Source: a candidate division CPR2 bacterium GW2011_GWC2_39_10 | GTDB lineage: Bacteria; Patescibacteriota; CPR2 | Assembly: GCA_000993275.1 (NCBI GenBank) | Contig: LBVV01000009.1 | Coordinates: forward strand, 2,897-66,896 | Reading direction: 5' to 3' | DNA length: 64,000 bases | Position numbers and translations under genes: made by a program | The notes under the pieces: model-generated | Told to the model about the DNA's origin: nothing | Databases searched by the model: none | What the model saw: the letters and a program-made list of their open reading frames with translations, nothing else | Shown here: piece by piece, positions 3,996 through 57,706 of the stretch | Numbering within the stretch: position 1 is the stretch's first letter | Layout of the letters: every line of letters starts with the position of its first letter

Positions 3996-6068
3996 ATGTT
4001 TTCTAAAATAAAATCCGGTTTTAAGTCGCATAAAAAATTAGTTGTTATTCTATTTTCGTCTTTTTTAATTTTAGGGCTATCGGGCGGAATTTATTATTTT
4101 GACTATTTTAGAGATTCCATAAGTCCGAACATAATATCTAAAAAAAAACCTACTCCTACTCCAAAACTTGAACCATTAAAAGTATCGGATAACAATCTTA
4201 AAAAGTTTTCTTCCTGCAGCACCTTAACTAGCGTTTTTGAAAACAGAAAAAAAGAGCAGCAAAACAGACTTATGGAATTTGCTGCAACGGCACCCGCAGA
4301 TCCTCCGGGCAAGGGCGGCGGAGGCGGCGAATATTCTGAAACCAATGTTCAGGTTGAGGGTGTAGATGAGGGAGATATCGTTAAAACTGATGGTGATTAT
4401 ATTTACACTATTGTTAAAGAGAAGGCCATTAAAATTGTTAAGGCCTTGCCTGCTAACAATATTTCGCTGTCTTCAACTATTAATTTCCCCGACAATTATG
4501 CCGTAAAAGAGTTATTTTTAGATGGAAATAAGTTGGTTGCTCTTGGAAATTCAGCAATCAAAGCCCGGGGCATTACAAATGTGCCGGAATGGTATTCGGA
4601 TTATAATTTTAATGAGGTTTACACTTTTATTAAAATTTGGGATATTACTGATCGGAATAATCCTAATCTGGTTCGTGACCTGCAGTATCAGGGTAATTAT
4701 TCGACTTCCAGAAAAATTAGCAGCTCGGTTTATGTGGTTGTAAATACTGCTCCGGATTTTGAAATTATTAATAAAGACGCTAAGGCTGACCAATATATTC
4801 CCAAAATATCCACGTCTGTTGGATCTTCTCAGTATAAGCCGGCTTGCGAATGTCAGGACGTGCATTATCTCACTTCCTTAAATTCAAAAAAGGAAACCAC
4901 CGAGGCAGAAGATATTAGGAATTTAAAAGATAGCAATTTTGTTTCGGTGATTACTATTAAGGCTCAAGATGTAAGCGCAGATCCGGACAAAAAAGTGATT
5001 GTTGCAAGTACCGATAAGGCTTATGCCTCAGCTAAAAATCTTTATTTAGCAGAGCCGCAATATCCGGAATTAACGACAAATGGGACAGTTTCGAATTTAA
5101 TTCCGGATAGCAATAATACGGCTATTCATAAATTTGCCCTTTCGGCAGAAAGAACCGATTATTTATCAAGCACTATAGTTCCGGGCGAAGTCTTAAACAA
5201 ATACTCGATGGACGAATATAACGATCATCTTAGAATTGCAACCACCAAGGGCAATGTGTGGAACCAAACCACAAAATCAACAAACAATTTGTATGTTTTA
5301 GATAAAAACTTTAAATTAGTGGGCAAAATAGAAGGCTTGGCCGAAGGGGAACATATCTATTCGGCAAGATTTGTGGGAGAAAGAGGCTATCTGGTTACAT
5401 TTAAAAAAGTAGATCCTTTTTTCACCCTGGACCTTAAAGATCCGGCCAGTCCCAAAGTGGTCGGTCAATTAAAGATTCCGGGTTATAGCGATTATCTACA
5501 TCCGATAGACGAAAACCATATTATAGGCATCGGAAAAAACACCATTGAAGCACAGCAGGAGTTAGAAAGCGAGCGAAGGGTTGATTTTGCCTGGTATCAA
5601 GGAATAAAAATGGCAATATTTGATGTGACCGATTTTGCAAATCCAAAGGAAATGCATAAGGTTACCATAGGCGATAGGGGAACGGATTCTTACGCCTTAC
5701 ATGACCCCAAAGCTTTTCTTTACGATAAAAAGAAAAATTTATTAGTCATTCCAATTTTGCTTGCCGAAATGTCCGAGACTCAGAAAAAGCAAGCGGAAGA
5801 TTGGGAATACGGCGCCAATACTTATCAGGGATCTTATGTTTATAATGTAACCCTAGATGCGGGTTTCGAACTTAGGGGCAGGGTCACTCATTATTCGGAA
5901 AATCATTTTAAGGATATCGAAAATAACATGTCATATTATTATTACGGCGACGATAAATCTATAGCCAGATCTTTATATATTGGTGATAATCTTTATACCG
6001 TCTCCAATGGTAAAATTATGGTTAATAATCTATCCAATTTATCCAAACTAAAAGAACTAAGTCTATAG
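3996..6068 (+). CDS. Secreted/membrane-anchored beta-propeller domain protein (COG4880 / PF09826-like)
   Basis: N-terminal TM/signal; C-terminal region with DPFFTLDLKDPASPKVVGQLKIPGYSDYLHP, typical of the secreted beta-propeller family; inserted between rpsJ and rplC. Confidence 0.5.
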   Translation: MFSKIKSGFKSHKKLVVILFSSFLILGLSGGIYYFDYFRDSISPNIISKKKPTPTPKLEPLKVSDNNLKKFSSCSTLTSVFENRKKEQQNRLMEFAATAPADPPGKGGGGGEYSETNVQVEGVDEGDIVKTDGDYIYTIVKEKAIKIVKALPANNISLSSTINFPDNYAVKELFLDGNKLVALGNSAIKARGITNVPEWYSDYNFNEVYTFIKIWDITDRNNPNLVRDLQYQGNYSTSRKISSSVYVVVNTAPDFEIINKDAKADQYIPKISTSVGSSQYKPACECQDVHYLTSLNSKKETTEAEDIRNLKDSNFVSVITIKAQDVSADPDKKVIVASTDKAYASAKNLYLAEPQYPELTTNGTVSNLIPDSNNTAIHKFALSAERTDYLSSTIVPGEVLNKYSMDEYNDHLRIATTKGNVWNQTTKSTNNLYVLDKNFKLVGKIEGLAEGEHIYSARFVGERGYLVTFKKVDPFFTLDLKDPASPKVVGQLKIPGYSDYLHPIDENHIIGIGKNTIEAQQELESERRVDFAWYQGIKMAIFDVTDFANPKEMHKVTIGDRGTDSYALHDPKAFLYDKKKNLLVIPILLAEMSETQKKQAEDWEYGANTYQGSYVYNVTLDAGFELRGRVTHYSENHFKDIENNMSYYYYGDDKSIARSLYIGDNLYTVSNGKIMVNNLSNLSKLKELSL

Positions 6069-6205
6069 TAAAAAAACCGCCCCATCATGGGATAGTCTCT
6101 CTCATTTGAGTCTCAATTGGATTACTAAAATCTCCATCTAAATGACTTAAGGCTGGCAGGAAATCGGAAAGACAACTAAAAAAATGAGTGTAACCCAGGC
6201 CCTTT

Positions 6206-6302
6206 GTAACTGCTCATAATCGTCATTGCGAACGATCCGGCAGCCGCCGGAGAGTGCGGCAATCTTGTTTCAAGCAGAGGAGATTGCTTCGTTTCACTCG
6301 CA
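6206..6302. repeat. 97-bp dispersed repeat copy 2
   Basis: 96/97 identical to 1723-1819. Confidence 0.75.
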
Positions 6303-6400
6303 AAAAACTGCTTAAAATGTGCTAAAATTTAAAATCAAACAAAAATGCAACTTTACAATTAAATGAAAAATGTCAGCACTGATTTAGGAGGGGAATTAAA

Positions 6401-6766
6401 ATGAAAAGGTTGAATGATTTTAGTATCTATGCGAAATTGATTATTTTCGGAATAATGATTGAAATTTTAAGTTTATTTCTGCCGATGGTTTTTATTAAAT
6501 TATTGCCCTACGTATTGCCCAACATAGTAACTGTGTCGGAAATCCCATTTCCAGTTTTAATGATTCTCAATCTTCGGCCAACATTAGGCCATTATGGATT
6601 TATTTGCATCATGGCTGGATTAGATTATTACTTTTGGCGCAATAATAGCCCTGATGAAGAAAATGGACATTTATATCTATCAAGGCTAGTCATTAAGCAT
6701 TCCCCCGCATTGTTAATGGTTATTTACTCGATAGACTATTTCATTTTTACACGTTTTATTAATTGA
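6401..6766 (+). CDS. Hypothetical small membrane protein
   Basis: RBS aggagggg 7 nt upstream of ATG; hydrophobic helices; no recognisable family. Confidence 0.35.
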   Translation: MKRLNDFSIYAKLIIFGIMIEILSLFLPMVFIKLLPYVLPNIVTVSEIPFPVLMILNLRPTLGHYGFICIMAGLDYYFWRNNSPDEENGHLYLSRLVIKHSPALLMVIYSIDYFIFTRFIN

Positions 6767-6819
6767 TGAATGTCGGCACATTTCGCACTGGCAAGATAAC
6801 TGTTTTGAGGAGGTCTATT

Positions 6820-7341
6820 ATGAAAACTACAAGCAGTGGAATTATCGTTGCGCGGCATGTAATCGAGACGATTAAATTGGCACCGATTAGGATAGATCAT
6901 GATCTTGAGTTTGCGAGAATAATAGAGGGCTTATACGGCCACGATTCTGGCATCAACTACACCAATATCCCTGATTGCAACGCAGGAAAAAATGGCATCG
7001 AGGAGGCAAGCCTTTTTCTTGTCAGGCCCGTTCCTTATTGGCAGGTGTGGTTAACAGACAGGGTTTTGTCATTGCTTGATGAAGCAGGATTTGTCCAAGA
7101 AGAGTTTCCTACCCTGTTTTCGCTCATGGGTCATGCCGAAGAACTTTGCAAAGCACGTATTGATAACATCTCGGCTCTTGGTGAGCACTCTCGTTGGAGG
7201 CATTCCAACGGCAATATCTTTGCTCCGTTTATGTCGCTATACGCTGCTAAATTCGGTTATCCTGCATTTTGCGAATTCGAAAGTAAATTTATCGGGAGCA
7301 AATGGTCGGAAGATAATTGGCTTGTTGTCCGCCACAAGTAG
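6820..7341 (+). CDS. Hypothetical protein, visibly higher GC than its surroundings
   Basis: ORF 6763-7341; best start is ATG 6820 after gaggagg RBS; no family recognised. Confidence 0.4.
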   Translation: MKTTSSGIIVARHVIETIKLAPIRIDHDLEFARIIEGLYGHDSGINYTNIPDCNAGKNGIEEASLFLVRPVPYWQVWLTDRVLSLLDEAGFVQEEFPTLFSLMGHAEELCKARIDNISALGEHSRWRHSNGNIFAPFMSLYAAKFGYPAFCEFESKFIGSKWSEDNWLVVRHK

Positions 7342-23467: not shown

Positions 23468-24028
23468 ATGAAGTCAAAAGGAGCATTGGTGAAAATAAAA
23501 GATAATAGTGACTTGTTTAATGAATGTAAAGACGCCTTTAGGTTAGAAACGTTATCCGTTTACTCAATACCTGAAGAGGAAAAATACCTCCAATTATATT
23601 ATGATGGCAAGCCACTACCACCACAAGAATGTTGTATGACTGAATGGCACACAATGTTAACAAAAGCGAAAGAAAGAGGCGCCTCTTTTAAAAGATTGAG
23701 GTCTTTACCGGAAAGTTTTAATAACTACATAAGAGCCGAAATTGAATGGGGCTACATATATAATGCCGAATTCGGTGAAAATATAAGAATGATTACTCCT
23801 AGTTTGATAAAAGAGAAAGTTAGCAAGGAAAAACTTGTAGATTTTTGGATTTTTGATAATGCTTCAGTTTTACTAATGAATTACGATACGGAAGGTCATT
23901 TCCTTGGCAGCAATCTAGTGGATGACTTCAGGGAAGTTGATAAATATATAAAGATAAAAGAGTTGCTATGGCCGCTAGGCCAGAAGCTGGAAGATTTTTT
24001 AAAAGAATATCGCGCTAAAAAGTATTAA
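23468..24028 (+). CDS. Hypothetical protein, 186 aa
   Basis: Clean ORF; no recognisable motifs. Confidence 0.45.
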   Translation: MKSKGALVKIKDNSDLFNECKDAFRLETLSVYSIPEEEKYLQLYYDGKPLPPQECCMTEWHTMLTKAKERGASFKRLRSLPESFNNYIRAEIEWGYIYNAEFGENIRMITPSLIKEKVSKEKLVDFWIFDNASVLLMNYDTEGHFLGSNLVDDFREVDKYIKIKELLWPLGQKLEDFLKEYRAKKY

Positions 24029-24103
24029 AACTCGACAAATTTGTGGTTTTTTTGCTATAATTAAGCCATGAATTTATATTGTGCAATTTTTTTATAAGTT
24101 CTA

Positions 24104-24133
24104 GATTCCCGATCGGGTCGGGAATGACGAAGG
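24104..24133. repeat. Family B hairpin repeat (gattcccgatcgggtcgggaatgacgaagg)
   Basis: Palindrome cccgatcggg flanked by the ggaatgac motif. Confidence 0.5.
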
Positions 24134-24205
24134 GAAAGCAGATTCCGGCTTTTATCTAAAGAGGGTAGGCACGTAAAGACTTGTTTATTGCTTATTGCTT
24201 TTTGT

Positions 24206-25126
24206 TTATTTTTTAACTAGTGGTAATGTACAGCATCTAAAGCCTGCTCCGGTTTTGGGGGCTTCGTCAAATTTTACCGGAATAATTTTTATGTTCATAT
24301 CAGTTAAAAGTTTAATTAATCTTGTTGCATTGTGCCGCATAATAATTGTGTTCGGGTCAATTACCAAAACGTTGGAAAATAGGGCGTCTTGTTCTTCCCT
24401 CGAGATATCAATTAACGCGTAATTATCTAAAATCTCTTGAGGAATTTCTTTTAAACCATTTTTATAAATCAGGGCCTTGCCAGCGACAATTGGGCCAAAA
24501 GTACAGTCTAGGTGCAGACATTCTTCGTCGTCTTCCGGTAGTTTCATGAATACGGGAATAACTTTATATTTGGTATCCCTTAAAGCATCTTTCAAAAAAT
24601 TTAAGCCTTCTTCAGTTGATCTTTGACCGATTCCACAAAAAACAAAACCTTTGTCCAAAATTATGTCGCCGCTTTCTAAAATTATCCCTTCGGGAATTCG
24701 AATAATTTTATCTTCAGGAATTAAATCCAAAATATCTTTTAAGGCTTCCCATTCCCGTTTACGGCTTATCTTTTTCATGTTGCAGATAAAAAACAAATCG
24801 CCGATAACAAAGGCAATGTCGCGGGGTGGAAGCTGGTCGCATACGCCGGTAGAACAGGGCAATGGAAGCAAGTGCCGAACGTGAACGCCTAAATCCTTCA
24901 AAACCAATTCTAAACCGTCAAATTCCTTTTTTAAACTTTCGGCCGTAGGTTTATCGTCAGAGAAATAATATTTTTTTTGAGTATTATTAACTATTTCCAA
25001 AGTTTTAGGGTCAGAAAGGAAATTATCCGGATAGCCAATTACCACATCCCTTAAAGTGTCCGTTTCATTCAAGCAATGGGGGATTAAGTTTTCTTTTTTA
25101 TTTTTAGTAATTATTTCTTCTTTCAT
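24206..25126 (-). CDS. Amidinotransferase-superfamily enzyme (arginine deiminase / DDAH-like)
   Basis: C-terminal GAGFRCCTLPL (catalytic Cys, compare ADI GGGPRCMSMPL) and HLDCTFGP His motif; 306 aa. Confidence 0.5.
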   Translation of the reverse strand: MKEEIITKNKKENLIPHCLNETDTLRDVVIGYPDNFLSDPKTLEIVNNTQKKYYFSDDKPTAESLKKEFDGLELVLKDLGVHVRHLLPLPCSTGVCDQLPPRDIAFVIGDLFFICNMKKISRKREWEALKDILDLIPEDKIIRIPEGIILESGDIILDKGFVFCGIGQRSTEEGLNFLKDALRDTKYKVIPVFMKLPEDDEECLHLDCTFGPIVAGKALIYKNGLKEIPQEILDNYALIDISREEQDALFSNVLVIDPNTIIMRHNATRLIKLLTDMNIKIIPVKFDEAPKTGAGFRCCTLPLVKK

Positions 25127-25484: not shown

Positions 25485-25811
25485 ATGAAAAAGCGGCGGA
25501 TAAAATTTATCTTAAAAGCAACGGATTTTGTTTTGCTAACATTTATTCTTTTTCCGATGGCTTTTTATATTAATCGAATTTATGGTTGCGATGCTTGTCA
25601 TTTAAATTTCATTCAGAACCTCTTAAAATCTATTGCCCAATACTTAATCAAGGTTCAGGTTTTAGTGTTTGCGCCGGCCTTAGTCGTTTTTTTTATCCCG
25701 TTTTCCATTGTCATGGAATGGGCAAGCGGCAGTCCCAGGGAATGGAAGCTGACTGCATATATCGCTTGCATCATTAGTCTTATGGCTCTAATGTATTTTG
25801 TGTTTACATAA
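25485..25811 (+). CDS. Hypothetical membrane protein
   Basis: Hydrophobic ORF, 108 aa. Confidence 0.35.
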   Translation: MKKRRIKFILKATDFVLLTFILFPMAFYINRIYGCDACHLNFIQNLLKSIAQYLIKVQVLVFAPALVVFFIPFSIVMEWASGSPREWKLTAYIACIISLMALMYFVFT

Positions 25812-25869
25812 AATACAATTGGCACTTATGAAGCGACCATGGTAAAATAGTTTTTAGTTAAGGAGGGAT

Positions 25870-26265
25870 ATGGGTTATATCGACAAAATTGCTTCTTCAT
25901 TTGCAAACTACCTGGTTGCGGTTTGGCAGCAGATTAGTTGGATTTTTACTACGGATACAATTAAAATGAAGCCGCTGTTATTTTTGGATATTATTTTAGT
26001 GGCCTTTGTTTTCTATTGGATTTACATTTTTCTTAAAAAAACCACAGCTTCACGATTCCTACCCGGGTTCCTCGCATTTTCTGTTTTTGCCGGCCTTGGT
26101 TATCTTTTTGATTTAAATGCCGTTGCTTGGTTATTTTCTAAAATGTTTTTAGTCATAATTGTGGCAATTCCCATAATATTTCAACCGGAAATTAGGGAAG
26201 CATTAAGTTTGATGTCAAAGAAAAAATCTTTGGTTAACGCTCCGATTAATAAGGAAGATAGATGA
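25870..26265 (+). CDS. CdaA-like N-terminal transmembrane module with no diadenylate cyclase (DAC) domain
   Basis: 3 TM helices ending in the CdaA linker motif IIFQPEIREAL (compare B. subtilis CdaA IIIFQPELRRALEQLGR); stops ~25 aa later; start of cdaR overlaps its stop (ATGA). Confidence 0.55.
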   Translation: MGYIDKIASSFANYLVAVWQQISWIFTTDTIKMKPLLFLDIILVAFVFYWIYIFLKKTTASRFLPGFLAFSVFAGLGYLFDLNAVAWLFSKMFLVIIVAIPIIFQPEIREALSLMSKKKSLVNAPINKEDR

Positions 26266-27482
26266 AGTACATAACCAATAATTTTTTTGTTAAATTTTTA
26301 TGTTTGGTGCTTGCCTTTGTTTTTTGGGTTTTTGTGATGGCAGCTGACACCAGAATGGGTTATTTCCCCAAAGAAATCGAGGTAAAAGTTAGAAATATTG
26401 CTAACGGTCTTGCGGTAGTGGAGGATACTGTTCCAATAAAAATTAAAGTAAAAGCTCCCTTAACCGTATATAATAAATTAAATGATAAAAGTTTTGAGGC
26501 TTACGTGGACGCTTCCAGTATAAAAGAAGCCGGGGCCGAAAATTTAGATATTAAAATTGATTCAAAGGAAGCGGGTGTTCAGGTAGTAGGGTCGGACCCT
26601 AAATCCTTCCTATTAAAATTGGAAGATGAAGAAACTAAAAAAATGGCTATAACCCTAAGCCATAAGGGAAAACCGTCTGATGATTATAAAGTTGGAACCG
26701 GGGAAATTTCGACAAAAGACGTTATAGTGACCGGTTCCCCTACAAAATTAAAAAAAATAGCAGATGTTGTGGCGTTGATAGAGTTAAAGGGTAATGAAAA
26801 AGGAAATATTGATGCCGACATGCCGGTAGTCGCTTTAGACGAAGATAACAATACCATTAATTATCTGGTTTTTGATCCGGAAATTGTGGGTGTTAAGATG
26901 GCCATTATTCCAAAGGTGGTGTCTAAATCCGTTGGTATAAAAGTGAACTTAACAGGTGAGGCGGCTAAAGGCTACTGGGTAAGCAAGATAAAAACCGATC
27001 CGGAGATTGTGGCCGTTAAAGGAGAGCTTGAAAAAATAAAAAATATGGAATATGTGGAAACTGAAAAAATTGATTTGGTGGGGAATTCGCAAACTATGAT
27101 TGCTCGTGCTAAGTTTCAGTTGCCGGAAGGTGTAAAAGTGGCAGATAATATAGACAAAGTTAATGTCCAAATTTTTATTTCTAAAATTGATGCTACCAAA
27201 ACCATATCGCCCGCGGTAAACTTTAAAAGGGGAAATCCGAAATATAAAGCGGAGACCTTAAATATGCCGGCCGTTACCTTGTCCGGTTCGCAAGCCGCCC
27301 TAAATGCCGCTACTTCTGAAAATGTTGTTTTGAATATAGATTTGTCAAGTTACGGACCGGGCGAGCAAAAAATTCAAATTAAAAAAGAAATGGTGACAGT
27401 TTCTGGTGAAGTTGAAGTGACTAAAGTTTTACCGGAGTTTATAACAATAAAAATAACGGAGATAGCAACACCAACCCCATGA
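26262..27482 (+). CDS. cdaR: YbbR-like (CdaR) protein with repeated YbbR domains
   Basis: N-terminal TM plus 3-4 degenerate YbbR-like repeats; canonical position after cdaA. Confidence 0.6.
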   Translation: MKYITNNFFVKFLCLVLAFVFWVFVMAADTRMGYFPKEIEVKVRNIANGLAVVEDTVPIKIKVKAPLTVYNKLNDKSFEAYVDASSIKEAGAENLDIKIDSKEAGVQVVGSDPKSFLLKLEDEETKKMAITLSHKGKPSDDYKVGTGEISTKDVIVTGSPTKLKKIADVVALIELKGNEKGNIDADMPVVALDEDNNTINYLVFDPEIVGVKMAIIPKVVSKSVGIKVNLTGEAAKGYWVSKIKTDPEIVAVKGELEKIKNMEYVETEKIDLVGNSQTMIARAKFQLPEGVKVADNIDKVNVQIFISKIDATKTISPAVNFKRGNPKYKAETLNMPAVTLSGSQAALNAATSENVVLNIDLSSYGPGEQKIQIKKEMVTVSGEVEVTKVLPEFITIKITEIATPTP

Positions 27483-28501
27483 AATTAGAAGATAGACATA
27501 ATTTAAAACTTATCATTATCCTATTCCTGGCGCTGCTATTGGGTGGTACTATTGGTTTTGTTGCTTTTACGGACGAAGACATACTAACCGCTTTCTACAG
27601 GACTATCATTTTAATGCTGACTCACTTTGACCATGAAATTCCGGAGACTTGGGGAGTAAGGCTTCTTGTCTTGGGTCTAATTTTTGGAAGTCTTATCATT
27701 ATGGCATATTTAATAAAGATATTTGCTCAGTATATTTTTGAAGGAACGCTGAGTGATAATATAAGGAGGCGAAGAATGAAAAAAGAAATAGATGCTATGA
27801 AAGACCATTTTATAGTTTGCGGTTTTGGGCGTGTCGGACAACAGATCGTTCAGGAGCTTATAAATGAAGATGTCAATTTTGTCGTTTTAGATCGTGACGA
27901 AAAAGCATTTCATGATAGAATATCAAAGAAGATTAAATTTTTGCCTAAAGATCCAACATTCGAGGATAATTTGCGTGATGCGGGTATTTACAGGGCCAAG
28001 TCTTTAATTGCGGGTTTGGGTGAAGATACGGATAATTTGCTTCTAACATTGGCGGCCAGATCCCTAAATCCCAACCTTTATATCGTTTCCAGATGTAGTT
28101 TTGAGGAAAATGCGGCAAAATTAGAAAAGGCAGGAGCGGACAGAGTTGCAATGCCGTATCAAATTGGCGGATATCATATGGCCACTATGGCCTTGAGGCC
28201 GGCAGTTGTTGATTTTTTAGATGTCATTATAGACAGCAAGCATCACGAATTGCAAATAGAAGAAGTTTGTGTTGAAGAAGATTCGCCGCTAATTGGCAAG
28301 CCATTAACGGAATATTTATCCAGAAAAAGAACGGGTGCCACAATTTTGGCAATTAACCGTTATGATGGAACATCTGTTATTAATCCGGCGGGAGACGAAA
28401 TAATTTATAGTAAAGACAAACTAATAATTATGGGCACAAAGAAGCAGTTGGAAAATTTGGCCAGTTCAATCTTTAGCGAGGAGAGTATTATTGTTAAGTA
28501 A
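27479..28501 (+). CDS. Membrane protein with RCK/TrkA-N and TrkA-C domains (K+-channel-like, no GYG filter)
   Basis: 2 TM helices then HFIVCGFGRVGQQ Rossmann (RCK_N) and a C-terminal RCK_C; no TVGYG selectivity filter seen. Confidence 0.55.
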   Translation: MKLEDRHNLKLIIILFLALLLGGTIGFVAFTDEDILTAFYRTIILMLTHFDHEIPETWGVRLLVLGLIFGSLIIMAYLIKIFAQYIFEGTLSDNIRRRRMKKEIDAMKDHFIVCGFGRVGQQIVQELINEDVNFVVLDRDEKAFHDRISKKIKFLPKDPTFEDNLRDAGIYRAKSLIAGLGEDTDNLLLTLAARSLNPNLYIVSRCSFEENAAKLEKAGADRVAMPYQIGGYHMATMALRPAVVDFLDVIIDSKHHELQIEEVCVEEDSPLIGKPLTEYLSRKRTGATILAINRYDGTSVINPAGDEIIYSKDKLIIMGTKKQLENLASSIFSEESIIVK

Positions 28502-28844
28502 AGAATTTACAGAAGAGCAAAAAGAGATTTTGAAAAAAAAGCTTAAAGATATCGAGGCAGAACTGGAAGAAAGAGCAGTTAAGTCGCCGGATAATATTTT
28601 TTGGAAGGCAAAATTTGATGATTTTGGCATAGAGGACGACGATGAGGTCTTAGAAGACGAAGTTTTCGATGTCAAAGTTGCCCAAATAAAAAATTTGTTA
28701 GAAGATAAGGCGCAAATTGAGTTAGCGTTGGAAAAGTTTTATAACGGAAGTTACGGTATTTGTGCGAATTGCCGTCAAGAAATTGATGTAGAAAGATTAA
28801 AGGCTTTCCCTGAAGCAACATTTTGTATAAAATGTGATTCATGA
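28491..28844 (+). CDS. DksA/TraR-family C4 zinc-finger protein
   Basis: Coiled-coil N-terminus; C-terminal CANC...CIKC. Confidence 0.6.
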   Translation: MLSKEFTEEQKEILKKKLKDIEAELEERAVKSPDNIFWKAKFDDFGIEDDDEVLEDEVFDVKVAQIKNLLEDKAQIELALEKFYNGSYGICANCRQEIDVERLKAFPEATFCIKCDS

Positions 28845-29770
28845 AAAAGGATTATAAAATTGATAATGAGGGATCCGGCAAAAGACTGGATGTTTTTTTA
28901 GTTTCCAGGGAGACTAATTATTCCAGGTCTTTTGTCCAGAAATTAATAATTGGGGGTAGGGTGCTAATTAATAATGTTTCCGGAAAAGCGAATATGATAT
29001 TAAAAGTGGGAGACTCCGTTTCATTTACAGCTCCGGAAGCAAAAAAAGAAGAAAAATTAAAGCCGTCTAACGATATAGAGATCCCTATAATTTTTGAGAA
29101 TGAAGAATTTTTAGCAATAAACAAACCGGCCGGGCTTGTTGTTCATCCGGCATTTGGTCACCCGGATGATACCTTAGTAAATATTCTTGTATCAATGCGT
29201 CCGGATTTAATGCGTCTGGATAATTTACGTCCGGGAATTATTCATCGGCTGGATAAAGATACTTCCGGCATAATGCTGGTTGCAAAAACCCAGGAAGCGG
29301 TAACTTTTTTATCCAAGGAAATTGAAAATAGAAAAGTAAAGAAACATTATTTGGCTTTGGTTTTTGGCAAGGTCGATCCTAAAAGGGGAGAGATTAATGT
29401 TCCCCTTAAAAGATCTTCGGTTAATAGAAAAAAAGTTGATGTTTCCGCGGCGGGTAAAACAGCAATTACGAATTATGAAGTGGCGGAGGAACTGGGCAAC
29501 GCGACATTAATAAATGCTTTTCCGGTAACCGGCAGAACGCATCAAATTAGAGTTCATTTTTCGTATATTGGTCATCCAATAATTGGCGATGAAACATATT
29601 CGTCAGGGTTACAACTTCTGGAGGCGAAAAAGTTGGGGGTTACCAGGCAAATGCTTCATGCTTATCGCTTGGGTTTTAAAGACCCCAAAACTAAAAAATG
29701 GCTGGAACTAGAGGCTCCGGTTCCTCAAGATTTTCAAAAGTTACTTCAGAAAACAAGGATGGAAAAATGA
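28841..29770 (+). CDS. rluD: RluA/RluD-family pseudouridine synthase
   Basis: S4 domain N-terminus; catalytic HRLDKDTSG. Confidence 0.85.
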   Translation: MKKDYKIDNEGSGKRLDVFLVSRETNYSRSFVQKLIIGGRVLINNVSGKANMILKVGDSVSFTAPEAKKEEKLKPSNDIEIPIIFENEEFLAINKPAGLVVHPAFGHPDDTLVNILVSMRPDLMRLDNLRPGIIHRLDKDTSGIMLVAKTQEAVTFLSKEIENRKVKKHYLALVFGKVDPKRGEINVPLKRSSVNRKKVDVSAAGKTAITNYEVAEELGNATLINAFPVTGRTHQIRVHFSYIGHPIIGDETYSSGLQLLEAKKLGVTRQMLHAYRLGFKDPKTKKWLELEAPVPQDFQKLLQKTRMEK

Positions 29771-30684
29771 TCGGCGACATTATCCAATTGGAGAAGGCGA
29801 GAATGGCCTATAAAAATGGCACCCTAAAACAGTCATATTTAATTACCGGTCCGTGGGATATCGGAAAAAAAGATTTTGCCATAGCGTTTTCGGCAATGAT
29901 TTTTTGCGAAACTAAAGACAATTGCGGTAAATGTAAGGGCTGCAAAAAAACCAATTCTTTTTCTAATCCCGACTTCTATGTTTTAGATGAGGAAGGGCAA
30001 ATAAAAATTGATTCGATAAGAGAGCTAAATAAAAAATTAAATTTAAAGCCCTATGAGTTTGAAAGTAAGGTAGCTTTAATAATTGGGGCAGAGAGAATGA
30101 CAATTGAAGCGGCAAATAGTTTACTAAAGATATTAGAAGAACCGCCGGAAGATTCTGTTATTATTCTTACATCCGCCGTACCCGGTCAATTGCTAGAAAC
30201 CATTAAGTCCAGATGTCAGGATATCAAGTTAAAAAATATGCCTAAAAAAATGATTGTTGAAGAATTAATTAAAAACCATGGCTTGAAAAGCGATGAGGCC
30301 TTAAGAATTGCCAATATCGCTTTAGGAAGGCCAAAATTAGCGGAGAAATTGGTCGTAAATGATGATTATGGTGAAGAGGTTGAATTTTTAAGAGAAATTG
30401 CAAAAAAAAATTTGTGCGATAGGTTCAAATTGGCGTCAGATTTTGCCGAAAAAAAGAATGTGTTAAGGTTAATCGGTTATTGGGAGACTTTTTTTATGGA
30501 TCTTTTAAAAGCAAAAATGGATGGCAGGGATGACCTGTCAACAACAAAACATAAGGTTAAAGATTTCTCTTGGGACATCTGGGCAATCGTAAACATACTT
30601 GACATTTTAGAGAAAATGAGGGAATATATCCAGAGTAAAATCAAAAATAAACTAATTCTAGAGAACATATTCTTAAATATATGA
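29767..30684 (+). CDS. holB: DNA polymerase III delta-prime subunit
   Basis: AAA+ with zinc module CGKCKGCKK; ATG 29767 overlaps the rluD stop. Confidence 0.7.
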   Translation: MIGDIIQLEKARMAYKNGTLKQSYLITGPWDIGKKDFAIAFSAMIFCETKDNCGKCKGCKKTNSFSNPDFYVLDEEGQIKIDSIRELNKKLNLKPYEFESKVALIIGAERMTIEAANSLLKILEEPPEDSVIILTSAVPGQLLETIKSRCQDIKLKNMPKKMIVEELIKNHGLKSDEALRIANIALGRPKLAEKLVVNDDYGEEVEFLREIAKKNLCDRFKLASDFAEKKNVLRLIGYWETFFMDLLKAKMDGRDDLSTTKHKVKDFSWDIWAIVNILDILEKMREYIQSKIKNKLILENIFLNI

Positions 30685-31367
30685 AGCTTGCCGGAATCCA
30701 ATTTCAATACTCTCTTAAAATTTATGATTTCGATCAGAACGACCTGGAAATTTCATTGGGTGATTTTGTTTTGGTAGAAACTATTCAGGGTCAGGAAATA
30801 GGAAGGGTGGTTTACTTAAATAAAAAGAAAAAAACGAGTGATGAAGATGCCAGGCCGATACTCCGAAAAGCAACTTTGGAAGACCGGGAAAAAATGAAAG
30901 AGTTAAAAGAGGAAGCTGCCACTTATTTGCCGGATTTCGAAAAACAAGTCAAGAGTTTTGGGCTTAAAATGAGACCGCTTGCCGCTGATATTTCTGTTGA
31001 TGAAAAGAGATTGACTTTTTATTTTATGGCAGAAAGCAGGATTGATTTTAGGGATATGGTAAGAGAATTGGCCAGGGAATATAAAAAGCAAATAAGACTC
31101 TTACAGGTTGGTGCCAGAGACGGAGCCCGAATTGTGGGCGGTTATGGCAGGTGCGGTTTAGTAGTCTGCTGTCAGAGATTCCTTACGGACTTAGAAAGCA
31201 TCACCATGGATATGGCGAGGAATCAGAATTTGGCGGCTAAATCAGGTTCTAAAATTTCCGGAATTTGCGGCAAACTAATGTGCTGTCTTGCATACGAAAC
31301 TGATGATAAAAATAAGATTGAGAAAGAGATGGAAAAAGAAATTGATGCTGCTCAAAGCCGAGACTAA
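30681..31367 (+). CDS. PSP1-domain protein (RicT/YaaT-like)
   Basis: GRCGLVVCCQRF and CGKLMCCLAYE cysteine motifs; holB-yaaT synteny as in Firmicutes. Confidence 0.7.
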   Translation: MKLAGIQFQYSLKIYDFDQNDLEISLGDFVLVETIQGQEIGRVVYLNKKKKTSDEDARPILRKATLEDREKMKELKEEAATYLPDFEKQVKSFGLKMRPLAADISVDEKRLTFYFMAESRIDFRDMVRELAREYKKQIRLLQVGARDGARIVGGYGRCGLVVCCQRFLTDLESITMDMARNQNLAAKSGSKISGICGKLMCCLAYETDDKNKIEKEMEKEIDAAQSRD

Positions 31368-31404: not shown

Positions 31405-31593
31405 GTCATTCCGGACTTGATCCGGAATCTATTATTTCTTTATTTCTATTTCCACTTTTGGCAGCAAAAGTGGAGCAAAACTGCCGACACGCTACAAAAT
31501 CGGATTAGCACATAAGGCTCATTCACTCTCAAAAAGTCGAACTCGTCATCTTCTCTTCGCCAAGTGCATCTCGATTTTTCCGCTACAGTCGGA
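31405..31593. repeat. Composite repeat: family B hairpin (31405-31429) plus family C element (31452-31593)
   Basis: Near-identical to 25215-25415, with an 18-bp insertion (atcttctcttcgccaagt). Confidence 0.7.
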
Positions 31594-37262: not shown

Positions 37263-38201
37263 ATGAGAAAAAAGGTTTTCAAGCTTGTGGTTGGGATTTT
37301 TGCATTAGCGGCAATACTGGCAATGCCCAAACACATTTATGCGGAGGGTGATACGGGGGGAGCGCGTGGAATAACCATAGTCCCTTTAAATTTCGAGTTG
37401 TTTGCTAATCCGGGAGAAAGTATTACCGACAAGGTTAGAGTTACCAACACATCCGATGTCGAAGGTAGTTATCAAATTCTAATCCAAGATTTTGCGGCTA
37501 CGGGCGAAGAAGGCAATGTATCTTTATTTGAGGATGATCAAACTAACCACAGCTTTTCTTTGGCTAAGTGGATTCAGCCGGAGCCCAAAAATTTTACCCT
37601 GAAAGCAAAAGAAGAGAAAACCATATATTTTACTATAAATGTACCCAAAGATGCTGAACCGGGCGGCCACTATGCATCTGTTTTGGTTAATATGGGCGGT
37701 GATGTAAAGCCAAGCGGCGGTGCGTCAGTTGCTTCCAGAATTGGATCTCTCATTCTTCTAAGAGTTTCCGGCAATATCAGAGAAGAAGCTAATATAGAGT
37801 CCTTTACCGCACCGAGTTATTCCGAAAAGAGTCCAATCGAATTTGATTTAAGAGTAAAAAATACCGGCAATAATCACATCAGACCAAAAGGCACCATTGT
37901 TATCACAAATATTTTAGGCCAAAAAGTTACCGAAGTTCCCTTGGACGGTTTAAATGTTTTGCCGAATGCTATTAGAAAAATACCAACCACTTGGAAACCG
38001 AATCAAATGTTGGCAGGACGTTACACGGCAACTCTGGTAGCTAACTATGGTTCATCAAACAAGCAATTAACATCGACAGTATCATTTATAGTTTTTCCTA
38101 AATGGCTTGCATTAGTTGTTGGTACAGGTATTATTTTGCTTGCTGTTGTTATATCAAACAAGAAAGCAGTTAAAAAATTACTGCATAAGTTAACTAAATA
38201 A
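37263..38201 (+). CDS. Cell-surface protein with DUF916/DUF3324-like architecture (signal peptide, beta-rich domain, C-terminal TM anchor with Lys tail)
   Basis: Signal peptide, PGGHYASVLVNMGG motif, C-terminal WLALVVGTGIILLAVVISNKKAVKK; ~55% identical to the paralog at 56191-57129. Confidence 0.45.
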   Translation: MRKKVFKLVVGIFALAAILAMPKHIYAEGDTGGARGITIVPLNFELFANPGESITDKVRVTNTSDVEGSYQILIQDFAATGEEGNVSLFEDDQTNHSFSLAKWIQPEPKNFTLKAKEEKTIYFTINVPKDAEPGGHYASVLVNMGGDVKPSGGASVASRIGSLILLRVSGNIREEANIESFTAPSYSEKSPIEFDLRVKNTGNNHIRPKGTIVITNILGQKVTEVPLDGLNVLPNAIRKIPTTWKPNQMLAGRYTATLVANYGSSNKQLTSTVSFIVFPKWLALVVGTGIILLAVVISNKKAVKKLLHKLTK

Positions 38202-38262
38202 TAACTTACTTGAGCTTTTGTTAACAAAGCTCTTAGGGGGTGGCAAGAGTTTGGGTTTGGGT

Positions 38263-39498
38263 ATGAGAAAACTTACAAAGAATATAATAGTTGGTGTCAC
38301 CCTGTTTATTGCCTTCTTTGTCTTTTCGGCTGACAAGGCAAGCGCTGCGGTTCAGGGGCTAAATTTCCCAAGAGATACAATTAACACGGGTAATCCCGAA
38401 GCATACGCCCAGCATTTAATTAAATTCGGACTGCCTTTAGAATCTCTACAGGTAAGTGCCGGCGACTATATTTTAATAGATTTTCCATTTTATTCATCGC
38501 TGACCGAGCCAACTTTTTTGAGTGGTTCTTTTACGGGGAATCCGGTTTTTAGCGTGATTGATAAGAGAATTAGAATTACCGGCATAGAACTGTTGCCGGG
38601 TAAAACGTTGCAAATTAATGGTATTAATGCCTATAATCCGGCCAATAGGGACGAATATGACGTTTATATTCGTATTTCTTCTGATCCGGACGGAATAGTT
38701 ACTAGAAATATGGCCCAGATCATAGCCACGCCGACCGATAATTCGGTCTCAGTTTCAGCCACAATAATGGCCAATGTTGGAACTCTAAAAGTAACAGGCT
38801 ATGCCGCTCCGGGACTTTTTTTGACATTTTCGGAAAACGGTACCATTATCGGCACCACTACCGGCACGCCCACCGGAACATTTTCTCAAATCTTTCCCGG
38901 CATTAATCCGGTTCAGCACACCATTATTATATTTGGTACGGATTCCGTAAATAGAACCACATCTCCCGTGACGATAGAGGCATTCACCAGGGTTAGGGAA
39001 TTGACCATAGTATCCGGCGTATTAATGCCGCCAACCATGTCTATTGATAAAGATCAAATTACTCAAGGGGAGTCCTTAACTATCTCAGGGATGGGCGTAC
39101 CTGGTCACATGATTATTATTTATACTCAACCGGCTCCCGATGAAAGCTATCAGACTGCGCCGGAATTGGATGGGGCTTGGTCTCATACTATTACCGATAC
39201 ATCCAGTTTCGAGATTGGCGTTCATTCGGTTTGGGCGATTGATCAAGATATTTTTGGAGGGCAAAGCTTGTATAGCCGTACTTTGGATTTTAGAGTGACG
39301 CAGGCCTTGCCACCAAACCCCGGTCCTCCTTGCGATATAGAAAAAGGCGATTTATCCTGTGACTTGCTTGTTAATATCGTAGATTTTTCGATTCTTTTAT
39401 ATTATTGGGGCACCAATAACGGTGTTGCCGATATCAATGCTGATGGCAGCGTCAATCTCATCGATTTCTCTGTCATGATGTTCTATTGGCAAGGATAA
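38263..39498 (+). CDS. Secreted Ig-like protein with a C-terminal type-I dockerin module
   Basis: Signal peptide; C-terminal duplicated Ca-binding loops DLSCDLLVNIVDFSILLYYW and DINADGSVNLIDFSVMMFYW (DxNxDGxVNxxD); ORF from 38218, ATG 38263 preferred. Confidence 0.65.
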   Translation: MRKLTKNIIVGVTLFIAFFVFSADKASAAVQGLNFPRDTINTGNPEAYAQHLIKFGLPLESLQVSAGDYILIDFPFYSSLTEPTFLSGSFTGNPVFSVIDKRIRITGIELLPGKTLQINGINAYNPANRDEYDVYIRISSDPDGIVTRNMAQIIATPTDNSVSVSATIMANVGTLKVTGYAAPGLFLTFSENGTIIGTTTGTPTGTFSQIFPGINPVQHTIIIFGTDSVNRTTSPVTIEAFTRVRELTIVSGVLMPPTMSIDKDQITQGESLTISGMGVPGHMIIIYTQPAPDESYQTAPELDGAWSHTITDTSSFEIGVHSVWAIDQDIFGGQSLYSRTLDFRVTQALPPNPGPPCDIEKGDLSCDLLVNIVDFSILLYYWGTNNGVADINADGSVNLIDFSVMMFYWQG

Positions 39499-45512: not shown

Positions 45513-46905
<1,393 letters not shown>

Positions 46906-52924: not shown

Positions 52925-54133
52925 TTACATCCTTATAAACTTTTCTTTGTAAGCAAAGATTGTAAGTGCCAAAGTGCTTAAGATTGTTAGTATTAGCCAT
53001 GCTTGGACACTCACATAATTATTTCCCAAAAAAGACACCGTTATGATATTACCGGCACTTTTATCGCCTGCGTCTTTTATAGTTGAAGAATATACAGTAT
53101 ATATTTGCCCGCCTTTTGCAATTACCGCTCCTTCATTTTTTGAGGATAAGGGCGTAAAATTTTGAGAGGCGAAAAATCGAAGAATATCTTTTGAGTCGCT
53201 ATAGTACCCATAAATCTTGCCGTCAGTTAAAAACCCGACATTAATATGTGTTTTGTTGTGCAAGCTTTTTGATAGCTTGTCATTAAAAAGGTATCCTCCA
53301 AAGATTGCGCCAATAATTTTGCCATCTTTTATAATGGGAGTGCCGGCAGTATTAGAGAGTAAGCCATCGGAACTTCTTTCAATACTGTTGGCGGGCTTAC
53401 CTTCGAGGATTTCTTTTGCAAAGGGGTTGGAATTTAAAATATTGTCTCCAAAAGATGCGGGTTTATGCGCGCGCACTAAAACATACCCCAACTCATTGGT
53501 TATTGTAAGCGAGGACAAATCGTTTTGTAGCATTTTAGTTTGAGAATAGGTAGATAGCTCAGAAGTTTTGTTTGATGCAATATAAGCACTAATTACAGGG
53601 TCTTCGGCGATGGTTTTTGTCTTTTTTGCCGCCACATCTTTGGCAGCGCTTATTTCGTTATCTATTGTTTGGTTTTGACTTTTGGCCTTTAAAATAGAGT
53701 TTCGTATAAATTTATCATTAAGAGCAGATTCTATAAACGGCAAAATAGCTATAAAAAATATCCCGACAATATAGATATATTTTAAAGTGTCCATGTCTTT
53801 TTTTTCTAAACGTACAGTCAATTTATTTTTTTGTACGATAAAATAAATAATAGCAATTAACGGAAATATCGTCAGCCAAAACCAGCTCACCCTTAGGGTT
53901 AAAAAGAAAAAAACAAATCCTAATAACACGTATGAGCCTCCAATGAAATGCTTCTTCCTGGATTTCTGTTTAAATCCGTCAAAAACAAAAATTGTGGCGA
54001 TGGAAATAGCCGTAAGGAGGAAAAAGCCGGCGAAAATTATAGAGCCAAAACTAACAATTGCCGGCAAAACGGCAAGCGAAAAAATTACTTCAAACGGGTG
54101 GCGAATTAAAAATTGAATAATTTTTTGAACCAT
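52925..54133 (-). CDS. Polytopic membrane protein with an extracytoplasmic Cache-like sensor domain and no output domain
   Basis: 4-5 N-terminal TM helices, ~230-aa periplasmic-type domain, C-terminal TM; ends right after the last TM. Confidence 0.4.
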   Translation of the reverse strand: MVQKIIQFLIRHPFEVIFSLAVLPAIVSFGSIIFAGFFLLTAISIATIFVFDGFKQKSRKKHFIGGSYVLLGFVFFFLTLRVSWFWLTIFPLIAIIYFIVQKNKLTVRLEKKDMDTLKYIYIVGIFFIAILPFIESALNDKFIRNSILKAKSQNQTIDNEISAAKDVAAKKTKTIAEDPVISAYIASNKTSELSTYSQTKMLQNDLSSLTITNELGYVLVRAHKPASFGDNILNSNPFAKEILEGKPANSIERSSDGLLSNTAGTPIIKDGKIIGAIFGGYLFNDKLSKSLHNKTHINVGFLTDGKIYGYYSDSKDILRFFASQNFTPLSSKNEGAVIAKGGQIYTVYSSTIKDAGDKSAGNIITVSFLGNNYVSVQAWLILTILSTLALTIFAYKEKFIRM

Positions 54134-56190: not shown

Positions 56191-57129
56191 ATGGTTAAGA
56201 AAGTGCTGTTTTTTGGTGCTAGTGTTGTCCTTGCATTTATTGTTACTTTTGTTCCGACAAAAATTAAAGCCGCGGATACGCCGGCTACGGGATCTGTTAC
56301 TGTTGTGCCGCCTCGATTTGAATTATTTGGAAATCCCGGCGAAGATGTGCCGAACCAGGCTTTAAAAGTTACAAATGAGTCGACTGTCGAAGGAAGCTTC
56401 ATGGTGGATATGGAAGATTTTAAGGCTGTTGGAGAGGACGGAAACGTCAATTTGATGGAGCAGAATTCTGACATCACTTATTCTCTTGCCAAGTGGATTA
56501 CCGTTAACCCCAGCTCGTTTACTTTAAAACCAAAAGAAACAAAAATCATTAATTTTTCAGTCAGCATCCCTAAAAATGCCGAACCGGGCGGAAGGTACGC
56601 CAGTATTATTGTTAATATGGGCGGCCAAGTTAAGGTAGAGGGTGGTGCTGTCGTTGCTCCCAGGGTTGTATCTTTAGTACTTTTAAGGGTTTCCGGTAAT
56701 GTTAAGGAAGAAGCCTCGGTGGAATCATTCACGGCGCCACAGTATTCGGAAAAAGCGCCGGTAAAATTTGACCTCAGAATGAAAAATTCCGGCCGAAATC
56801 ATATAAAACCGAAAGGCACCATTATTATTACTAATCTTTTGGGACAAAAGGTAGATGAAATTCAGCTAAGCGGCGAAAACGTTTTGCCCGGGGCCATAAG
56901 GAAAATGACTACGGAATGGAAAACAAATAAGTTTTTAGCCGGTCGTTACACTGCCACTTTGGTTGCTACTTACGGCGAAAAAAATGATAAGCCGTTATCA
57001 ACAACTGTTTCTTTTTTTGTAATGACTAAATCAACAGCTTACACACTGGGTATTGGTACGGTCGCCCTTGCCCTTGCCTTTGTTAAAAGAAAGTCACTTA
57101 GAAAGACTTTACATAATTTGACTAAATAA
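56191..57129 (+). CDS. Cell-surface protein, DUF916/DUF3324-like (paralog of 37263-38201)
   Basis: Signal peptide, PGGRYASIIVNMGG, C-terminal TM anchor plus basic tail. Confidence 0.45.
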   Translation: MVKKVLFFGASVVLAFIVTFVPTKIKAADTPATGSVTVVPPRFELFGNPGEDVPNQALKVTNESTVEGSFMVDMEDFKAVGEDGNVNLMEQNSDITYSLAKWITVNPSSFTLKPKETKIINFSVSIPKNAEPGGRYASIIVNMGGQVKVEGGAVVAPRVVSLVLLRVSGNVKEEASVESFTAPQYSEKAPVKFDLRMKNSGRNHIKPKGTIIITNLLGQKVDEIQLSGENVLPGAIRKMTTEWKTNKFLAGRYTATLVATYGEKNDKPLSTTVSFFVMTKSTAYTLGIGTVALALAFVKRKSLRKTLHNLTK

Positions 57130-57148
57130 TCTTTAAATAGAGTTTGCA

Positions 57149-57706
57149 TTGAGAGAGAAAATTAAAAAAGTTGCGTCAAAAAAAGAATTTTTAATTGCTG
57201 CTTTTTTAGTTTCTCTTTTAGTCGTAATTTATTTTAAAAATAATCCCCCCAAAAGGGTTGATTGGAACATGGTTTCTTGGGGGAAAAGTCCGGCTTCTTT
57301 AATAATTATCGGTCCAAGTGAAATACCGGGAGCCGGAACTCCTTTTAAGATAAGCTTAGATCTTGATACCAACGAGTACTTGATAAACGCCATTCAGGCT
57401 AATATTGAGTATGATCCAGCGGTTTTAGAGGCTCTGAAATTGGATACCACCGATTCCTTTTGCAAACTCTATATAGAAAACAAATATCAAAACGAAAAAG
57501 GTCTTGTGAAAGTTGCCTGCGGCTTGCCGTCCCCCGGATTTAAAGGTAAAAACAGAGTTTTAACAATAGATTTTATTGCAAAGTCTTTTTCAAATACTAC
57601 AATAAGAGTAAGAGAAGATAGCATGATAATGGCTAATGGAAAAAAAGGAATCAATATATTAAAGAATTTTGATTCCAAGATAATTAGGGTGAGGGTTGCT
57701 GTTTGA
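57149..57706 (+). CDS. Signal-anchored cohesin-domain protein
   Basis: N-terminal TM; INAIQANIEYDPAVLEAL (cohesin YDpsvLe motif); RVLTIDFIAKSFSNTTIRV. Confidence 0.6.
   Translation: MREKIKKVASKKEFLIAAFLVSLLVVIYFKNNPPKRVDWNMVSWGKSPASLIIIGPSEIPGAGTPFKISLDLDTNEYLINAIQANIEYDPAVLEALKLDTTDSFCKLYIENKYQNEKGLVKVACGLPSPGFKGKNRVLTIDFIAKSFSNTTIRVREDSMIMANGKKGINILKNFDSKIIRVRVAV

Follow-up and report, generated by a model that had tools for sequence, protein, structure and literature searches.

The closest described relatives of the protein analysed here are the CdaA (DacA) diadenylate cyclases (TIGR00159) known from L. lactis (PDB 9g69), B. subtilis and L. monocytogenes. In L. lactis CdaA, the transmembrane (TM) domain is predicted to provide the tetramer interface via TMH-3 and is followed by a conserved helix of roughly 16 aa (PMC11686323). 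Embedding in the membrane lifts CdaA activity more than 100-fold, and the reason for the embedding has been stated to be an open question (PMC11686323). GlmM binds the soluble C-terminal DAC domain of CdaA (PMC10117814). CdaR, which is surface-exposed, interacts directly with CdaA, and what it senses has been described as unresolved (PMC10117814). The DAC domain is modular: in CdaM (Mycoplasma), DisA, CdaS and DacZ it is joined to different N-terminal modules, and all of these proteins keep DAC, unlike the protein described below. We know of no anchor-only protein among them.

The gene cdaA_N lies in a 64-kb stretch of DNA from the CPR2 bacterium GW2011_GWC2_39_10, the whole of which was analysed and is called the window here. 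CPR2 comprises very small groundwater bacteria that have not been cultivated. Its product resembles CdaA/DacA in the N-terminal region, the three TM helices and the FQPE(L/I)R helix, and the gene resembles cdaA in lying directly upstream of cdaR and near rplM–rpsI, as in a Bacillota-type locus. It differs in having neither DAC (PF02457) nor the C-terminal region, and in that an RCK gene instead of glmM follows cdaR. The boundary is the same as in engineered CdaA truncations (delta-80 and delta-100 CdaA, CdaA-DAC), which were cut at the juxtamembrane helix or linker (PMC11686323); those constructs keep DAC and drop the membrane part, and the CPR2 protein is their natural converse. Natural decay of one component of cdaA–cdaR–glmM is likewise seen in L. 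lactis MG1363, where the cdaR of the cdaA locus is a pseudogene (PMC10117814). That strain loses the regulator and keeps the cyclase, whereas CPR2 loses the cyclase domain and has selection maintaining the regulator as well as the membrane module. We found no paper on TM-only CdaA proteins, nor on diadenylate cyclases in CPR.

A CdaA membrane module without the cyclase domain

The open reading frame at 25870 to 26265 (+ strand) encodes 131 aa and was annotated by us as a DAC-less CdaA ortholog (GenBank KKQ94631.1/KKR33776.1). In the public records of GW2011_GWC2_39_10 the protein carries no name beyond 'hypothetical protein' or 'TIGR00159 family protein', and the missing domain is not flagged. 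A strong Shine–Dalgarno sequence, AAGGAGGG, precedes it (25860 to 25867, +), and the GGAGGG within this is kept in all relatives.

The ORF is a real gene, and its homology to the TM module of CdaA far exceeds what chance would give. The Pfam model CdaA_N (PF19293) matched it with 25.6 bits against a gathering cut-off of 23.8, and the NCBIfam model TIGR00159 ('diadenylate cyclase CdaA') was matched over positions 14 to 99 of 254 (E = 7.7e-11); the whole-protein TIGR00159 score of 41.8 bits is below the curated full-length cut-off of 188.8. An exhaustive phmmer search recovered full-length CdaAs down to E = 1e-15, and the solved full-length diadenylate cyclase 9g69_C was matched at residues 12 to 113 (E = 1.5e-7). 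The AF2 model of the protein is all-helical (mean pLDDT 78.9), with helices at residues 2–26, 28–33, 35–57, 59–79, 83–103 and 105–123 followed by a disordered tail of eight residues; Foldseek comparison of this model with the PDB gave no matches. From the model and the alignment to the TM modules of full-length CdaAs, the three TM helices were assigned to residues 35–57, 59–79 and 83–103 (25972 to 26178, +).

Alignment and AF2 also define an amphipathic juxtamembrane helix (with its motif, residues 102–123; 26173 to 26238, +), which corresponds to the ~16-aa helix after TMH-3 of L. lactis CdaA (PMC11686323). It carries IIFQPEIREAL (residues 102–112, nt 26173–26205), which contains the motif FQPE(L/I)R..L (residues 104–112), and the columns of this motif are invariant or nearly so in alignments with full-length CdaAs. 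The stop follows 19 residues after IIFQPEIREAL, at the end of a variable charged tail (residues 124–131; 26239 to 26262, +) whose last codons hold the ribosome-binding site of cdaR, GGAAG (26253 to 26257).

A first-pass annotation of this DNA had described the ORF as a CdaA cut down to its TM module, and the PF19293, TIGR00159, phmmer and 9g69_C matches and the three TM helices all agree with that description. The alignment with full-length CdaA that it had proposed as a check brings both the TM helices and the FQPE(L/I)R helix into register, and the possibility it had raised, that the TM region is unrelated to CdaA, is contradicted by the homology to PF19293 and TIGR00159. It was also right that the ORF ends shortly after the motif, and its distance of about 25 aa needs only the trivial correction to 19 residues.

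No part of the cyclase domain was detected. The 131-aa ORF gave no match to Pfam DAC (PF02457), and the DGA and RHR catalytic motifs are absent. Using a DAC-domain HMM made from 27 full-length CdaA matches, we searched six-frame translations of the whole 64-kb window and obtained nothing (best E = 0.44). The same HMM, as a positive control, detected DAC in 77 of 78 non-CPR2 loci, the sole miss being truncated by a contig end. It found no DAC in any of the CPR2-type loci (~20 kb around each of four related lineages), and no DAC ORF lies between cdaA_N and cdaR in any short-form lineage. The earlier statement that there is neither space for nor trace of a DAC domain upstream of cdaR is thus borne out by the overlap of the two genes and by the blank HMM search in all frames. 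Because the catalytic domain is absent, the cdaA_N product would be expected to be unable to make c-di-AMP itself.

Outside the CPR2-like clade, CdaA_N and DAC are fused in one ORF in all of the more than 150 loci collected from reference genomes and metagenomes, 4 contig-end cut-offs aside, and cdaR is usually the next gene. Two candidates for a stand-alone CdaA_N outside the clade were rejected: P0006 is a contig-end fragment, and P0018 is a single unreplicated contig of 917 bp that breaks off abruptly and contains no trace of DAC in any of its frames. Among the short matches checked, there is no second convincing case. An alternative genetic code was rejected as well. Read-through of TGA gives just three codons before a TAA (P0001), and long ORFs over the whole window agree with table 11.

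Operon, neighbours and conservation

Seven genes, from cdaA_N to PSP1 (25870 to 31367), overlap by 4 to 11 nt at every junction, a pattern of translational coupling. The second gene (26262 to 27482, +) encodes an N-terminal TM anchor and four YbbR repeats, which identify it as cdaR. Its ATG overlaps the stop of cdaA_N (ATGA at 26262), as the first-pass annotation had observed. The third gene (27479 to 28501, +), whose start overlaps the cdaR stop, encodes an MthK/GsuK-like 2-TM protein with RCK_N and RCK_C. The coupled string continues on the same strand with a DksA/TraR zinc finger gene (28491–28844), rluD (28841–29770), holB (29767–30684) and PSP1 (30681–31367). The operon does not include glmM; the RCK-domain protein follows cdaR, and the window ORFs that were scanned include no PGM_PMM protein. 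A promoter-like site (TTGGCA, 18 nt, TAAAAT with extended TG) lies upstream of cdaA_N at 25819 to 25848 (+), its −10 region being kept in the relative L011, and a terminator-like hairpin lies 3' of PSP1 at 31408 to 31428 (+). Since the promoter and terminator scans overall gave no enrichment over shuffled sequences, both calls are weak evidence.

Directly upstream of cdaA_N (25485 to 25811, +) is a gene whose 108-aa product crosses the membrane several times, has a CxxC motif and matches no family. It occupies this position in core CPR2 lineages only and is absent from the most divergent short-form lineage, and probably does not belong to the conserved module. The interval 23468–25126, which separates rpsI from the cdaA_N operon, holds genes for a DUF6879 protein and a DDAH/arginine-deiminase-like amidinotransferase; relatives have other genes there.

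A Bacillota-type locus (L129) reads ecfA–ecfA'–ecfT–truA–rplM–rpsI–alr-like gene–carbamoyltransferase–cdaA–cdaR–glmM–glmS, with cdaA–cdaR about 2.3 kb (two genes) downstream of rplM–rpsI. A cdaA–cdaR pair close to rplM–rpsI is therefore a known arrangement, which favours the view that the CPR2 gene is an ortholog in its original place, with DAC deleted and glmM missing from the operon.

Elsewhere in the window, several further features were recorded. The S10 operon is interrupted between rpsJ and rplC (3996–7341) by a gene whose 690-aa product combines an N-terminal membrane segment with a Beta_propel domain (PF09826), as well as by two ORFs without a family match. The ATP synthase beta gene, atpD (45531–46905), looks frameshifted near 46.32 kb: its C-terminal half is in another frame and a segment equivalent to SEVSALLGRMPSAV is missing, so either the assembly contains an error at this place or atpD itself is disrupted. 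The membrane protein encoded at 52925–54133 (−) has an extracellular sensor domain of the dCache_3 type, and no recognisable kinase or other output domain. Two cell-surface clusters (37263–39498 and 56191–57706) contain paralogous WxL-interacting peptidoglycan-binding-domain proteins, at 37263–38201 and 56191–57129, the former identified by a Pfam match and the latter by its sequence resemblance to the former. The first adjoins a dockerin-domain protein (38218–39498) and the second a cohesin-domain protein (57149–57706).

At least four groundwater contigs that were assembled independently contain the identical 131-aa ORF in the same layout, and it is present in GenBank MAGs as well. As short forms we took proteins with a stop within about 45 residues of FQPE(I/L)R, cdaR directly next, and conservation across species. 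The set found in this way (the window, L011, L012, P0002, P0004, P0005 and P0011/L106) consists of proteins of 127–151 aa, and the short forms are 92, 72, 64, 62, 52 and 37% identical to the window protein. The 92% form is that of CG2_30_37_16, and the 72% form that of CPR2 GW2011_GWC2_39_35 and GWC1_41_48. In all those whose context was examined (every one but P0004, the 62% form), cdaR directly follows, abutting or overlapping the short gene. Wherever the flanks are long enough, the short forms occupy a common slot, rpsI ... cdaA_N–cdaR–(RCK protein)–dksA-like–rluD–holB–PSP1. The 37%-identical lineage keeps this slot too, with the reading frame and the three-helix architecture intact.

Selection on the protein is strong. 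For a core of 118 codons, comparison of the window with L011 gave a dN/dS of 0.016 at a dS of 0.23, which is unsaturated, and deeper pairs gave pN of 0.16–0.21 against pS of 0.71–0.78. The dN/dS of cdaR was 0.044, and the cdaA_N core is thus under tighter constraint than its partner gene. The juxtamembrane helix is the best-conserved part of the short protein. After ...SLMSKK the tail diverges freely, even between proteins that are 92% identical; it is purine-rich, and rich in E, K and D, because its last codons encode the ribosome-binding site of cdaR (GGAAG, GGAGG). In a neighbour-joining tree from an 83-column TM alignment, the short forms fell into one clade, with bootstrap support of 66% for the core, which drops to 19% once the most divergent lineage (P0011) is added. 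Given this weak bootstrap, a single ancestral loss of DAC rests mainly on the common synteny.

There is very little room for doubt that the gene is real, that it encodes a homolog of the CdaA TM module without DAC, and that it is kept in the same synteny under strong purifying selection over a deep clade. The word 'remnant', which the first-pass annotation had used, does not fit: decay is contradicted by this selection and by the sharing of the gene across a deep CPR2-like clade.

The RCK protein and a possible link to cations

The product of 27479–28501 scored 98.6 bits with TrkA_N and 46.1 bits with TrkA_C. It consists of a 2-TM pore module followed by RCK_N and RCK_C and aligns end to end with MthK (residues 23–336) and with GsuK. 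The K+ selectivity filter T(V/L)G(Y/F)GD is absent; LTHFDHE (nt 27617–27637) is aligned to TTLGFGD of GsuK. A two-histidine motif, (T/S)HFxH, is kept in the relatives down to the most divergent lineage. Judging from this filter region, the protein may be a channel that is not selective for K+ or is unusual in some other way.

In all short-form lineages, a gene with an RCK domain lies no more than about 2 kb away, on the same strand, while such a gene was present within 6 kb in only 4 of 80 full-length CdaA loci, in all 4 on the opposite strand. As the short-form lineages are related and may have inherited the arrangement from one ancestor, we take this association as a lead and not as a statistic. 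The 52%-identical lineage (L095) has no RCK protein downstream of cdaR; its RCK-type gene is that of a CPA2 antiporter with TrkA_N, which, preceded by a P-type cation ATPase gene, is found directly upstream of cdaA_N (5204–9653 of L095). In S. mutans, DacA binds a Ca2+-ATPase encoded beside its locus (PMC13289029), and by analogy the upstream P-type ATPase of L095 is a possible parallel.

A proposed cyclase-independent partner of CdaR

Genes for GdpP, DhhP, PgpH, DarA and GlmM were not found among the window ORFs scanned, and Rfam gathering scans for the ydaO c-di-AMP riboswitch in the window and five related loci gave only tRNAs. The search for DAC, riboswitch and turnover genes covered the window and ~20 kb per related lineage, which is about 7% of a genome of roughly 1 Mb. 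In a survey of gut genomes, the number of species encoding a DAC of any class was zero among Patescibacteria (PMC12901056, Table 1), which makes a DAC-free CPR2 plausible. The first-pass annotation was right to pose lost synthesis and a cyclase encoded elsewhere as the two alternatives, and we regard it as about an even bet that the CPR2 lineage has no diadenylate cyclase.

The explanation that we prefer, by a slight leaning and no more, is that the CPR2 gene is a cdaA ortholog from which DAC was deleted and which has been selected as a stand-alone membrane partner of CdaR with a cyclase-independent role. This explanation does not depend on whether a cyclase of another class is encoded elsewhere in the genome. 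Deletion would have removed all of the cytoplasmic DAC domain, leaving the N-terminal helix, the three TM helices and the juxtamembrane amphipathic helix. The resulting protein, of ~130 aa, would stand alone in the membrane and probably still assemble via its membrane part, and its gene is the first in the translationally coupled operon that includes cdaR. Since CdaR has only about 10 cytoplasmic residues, any contact it has with CdaA must use the membrane or outer-face module, which is the part retained. On these topological grounds an interaction between CdaA_N and CdaR is plausible, and CdaR would still be bound. In conservation the CdaR anchor does not stand out from the remainder of the protein (0.71 versus about 0.69), so it carries no specific signature of a constrained TM–TM interface. 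The complex of the two proteins would then have a role that is independent of a cyclase, and we give this mechanism the same chance of being right as of being wrong. More speculatively, its output could pass through protein contacts to cation homeostasis, for which the co-transcribed RCK channel-like protein would be the best candidate. Contact with GlmM, which the first-pass annotation had suggested for the truncated protein, is unlikely, because the DAC domain to which GlmM binds is gone; nor is there a glmM-type gene in the operon or among the scanned window ORFs.

The main rival is a split cyclase, in which a separate soluble DAC from elsewhere in the genome would dock on CdaA_N, for example on its amphipathic helix, and c-di-AMP synthesis would be controlled in trans. 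In its favour, the best-conserved part of the short protein is the juxtamembrane helix, which in CdaA leads into DAC and for which a regulatory role has been suggested, and a scaffold would be useful given the more than 100-fold gain in activity from membrane tethering (PMC11686323). The DNA inspected, at about 7% of the genome, also leaves room for such a gene. However, a simple split would leave a DAC ORF between cdaA_N and cdaR, which is absent in every lineage, and neither the 64-kb window nor the ~20 kb around each of the four related lineages contains a DAC. The residues after the helix are variable and disordered and double as the ribosome-binding site of cdaR, and gut Patescibacteria are reported to be without DAC of any class (PMC12901056). 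We consider a split cyclase improbable. Far less probable still is a regulatory decoy, whereby the TM-only protein would hetero-oligomerise with a second, full-length CdaA encoded elsewhere or would titrate CdaR. Mixed oligomers are conceivable because the TM module is the oligomerisation interface, but cdaR adjoins cdaA in essentially every locus examined and here it adjoins the short gene. Furthermore, among the best 150 representatives in the exhaustive search, the identity of full-length proteins to the short form does not exceed 49% (for most it is 29–43%), and the one full-length protein whose context was looked at (P0008) lies outside CPR2-type synteny.

Two further readings are less probable still. 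The ORF could be a leftover that is kept only for the promoter, the ribosome-binding site and the translational coupling of cdaR; its last codons are indeed the Shine–Dalgarno sequence of cdaR, its stop overlaps the cdaR start and its tail evolves freely. Against this, the 118-codon core, whose dN/dS is 0.016 and whose pN is far lower than pS in every pair compared, is under stronger constraint than cdaR itself. With frame and three-helix architecture intact at 37% identity, and with a strong Shine–Dalgarno sequence of its own, the gene is very hard to reconcile with a non-functional leftover, which we rate as highly improbable. That DAC is missing through an error of assembly, sequencing or gene calling, such as a frameshift or a chimeric join, is effectively refuted: the apparent frameshift in atpD indicates that local errors are possible in this window, yet the same ORF and junction recur in several independent assemblies that stem from different samples and sites, divergent species have the same architecture, and no frame contains DAC-like sequence.

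A wider form of the preferred reading, the CdaR partner, is that CPR2 has no cyclase at all and that CdaA_N–CdaR is a cyclase-independent envelope sensor acting protein-to-protein on the RCK protein and other cation transporters. We think this unlikely as a whole. If true, a c-di-AMP osmoregulation circuit would have lost its second messenger while keeping the membrane input module and the RCK-type output.

For annotation, the label 'TIGR00159 family protein' on short forms should not be taken as evidence for c-di-AMP production. For the family, the locus touches two open questions, namely why CdaA sits in the membrane, and what CdaR senses and does. In the CPR2 form, nature provides a separation-of-function allele for that part of the CdaA–CdaR system which is understood least, together with three concrete proteins for tests: the module of 131 aa, CdaR and the RCK protein encoded next to them. 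Its conservation argues that the CdaA membrane module and CdaR have a function for which a cyclase domain in cis is not required.
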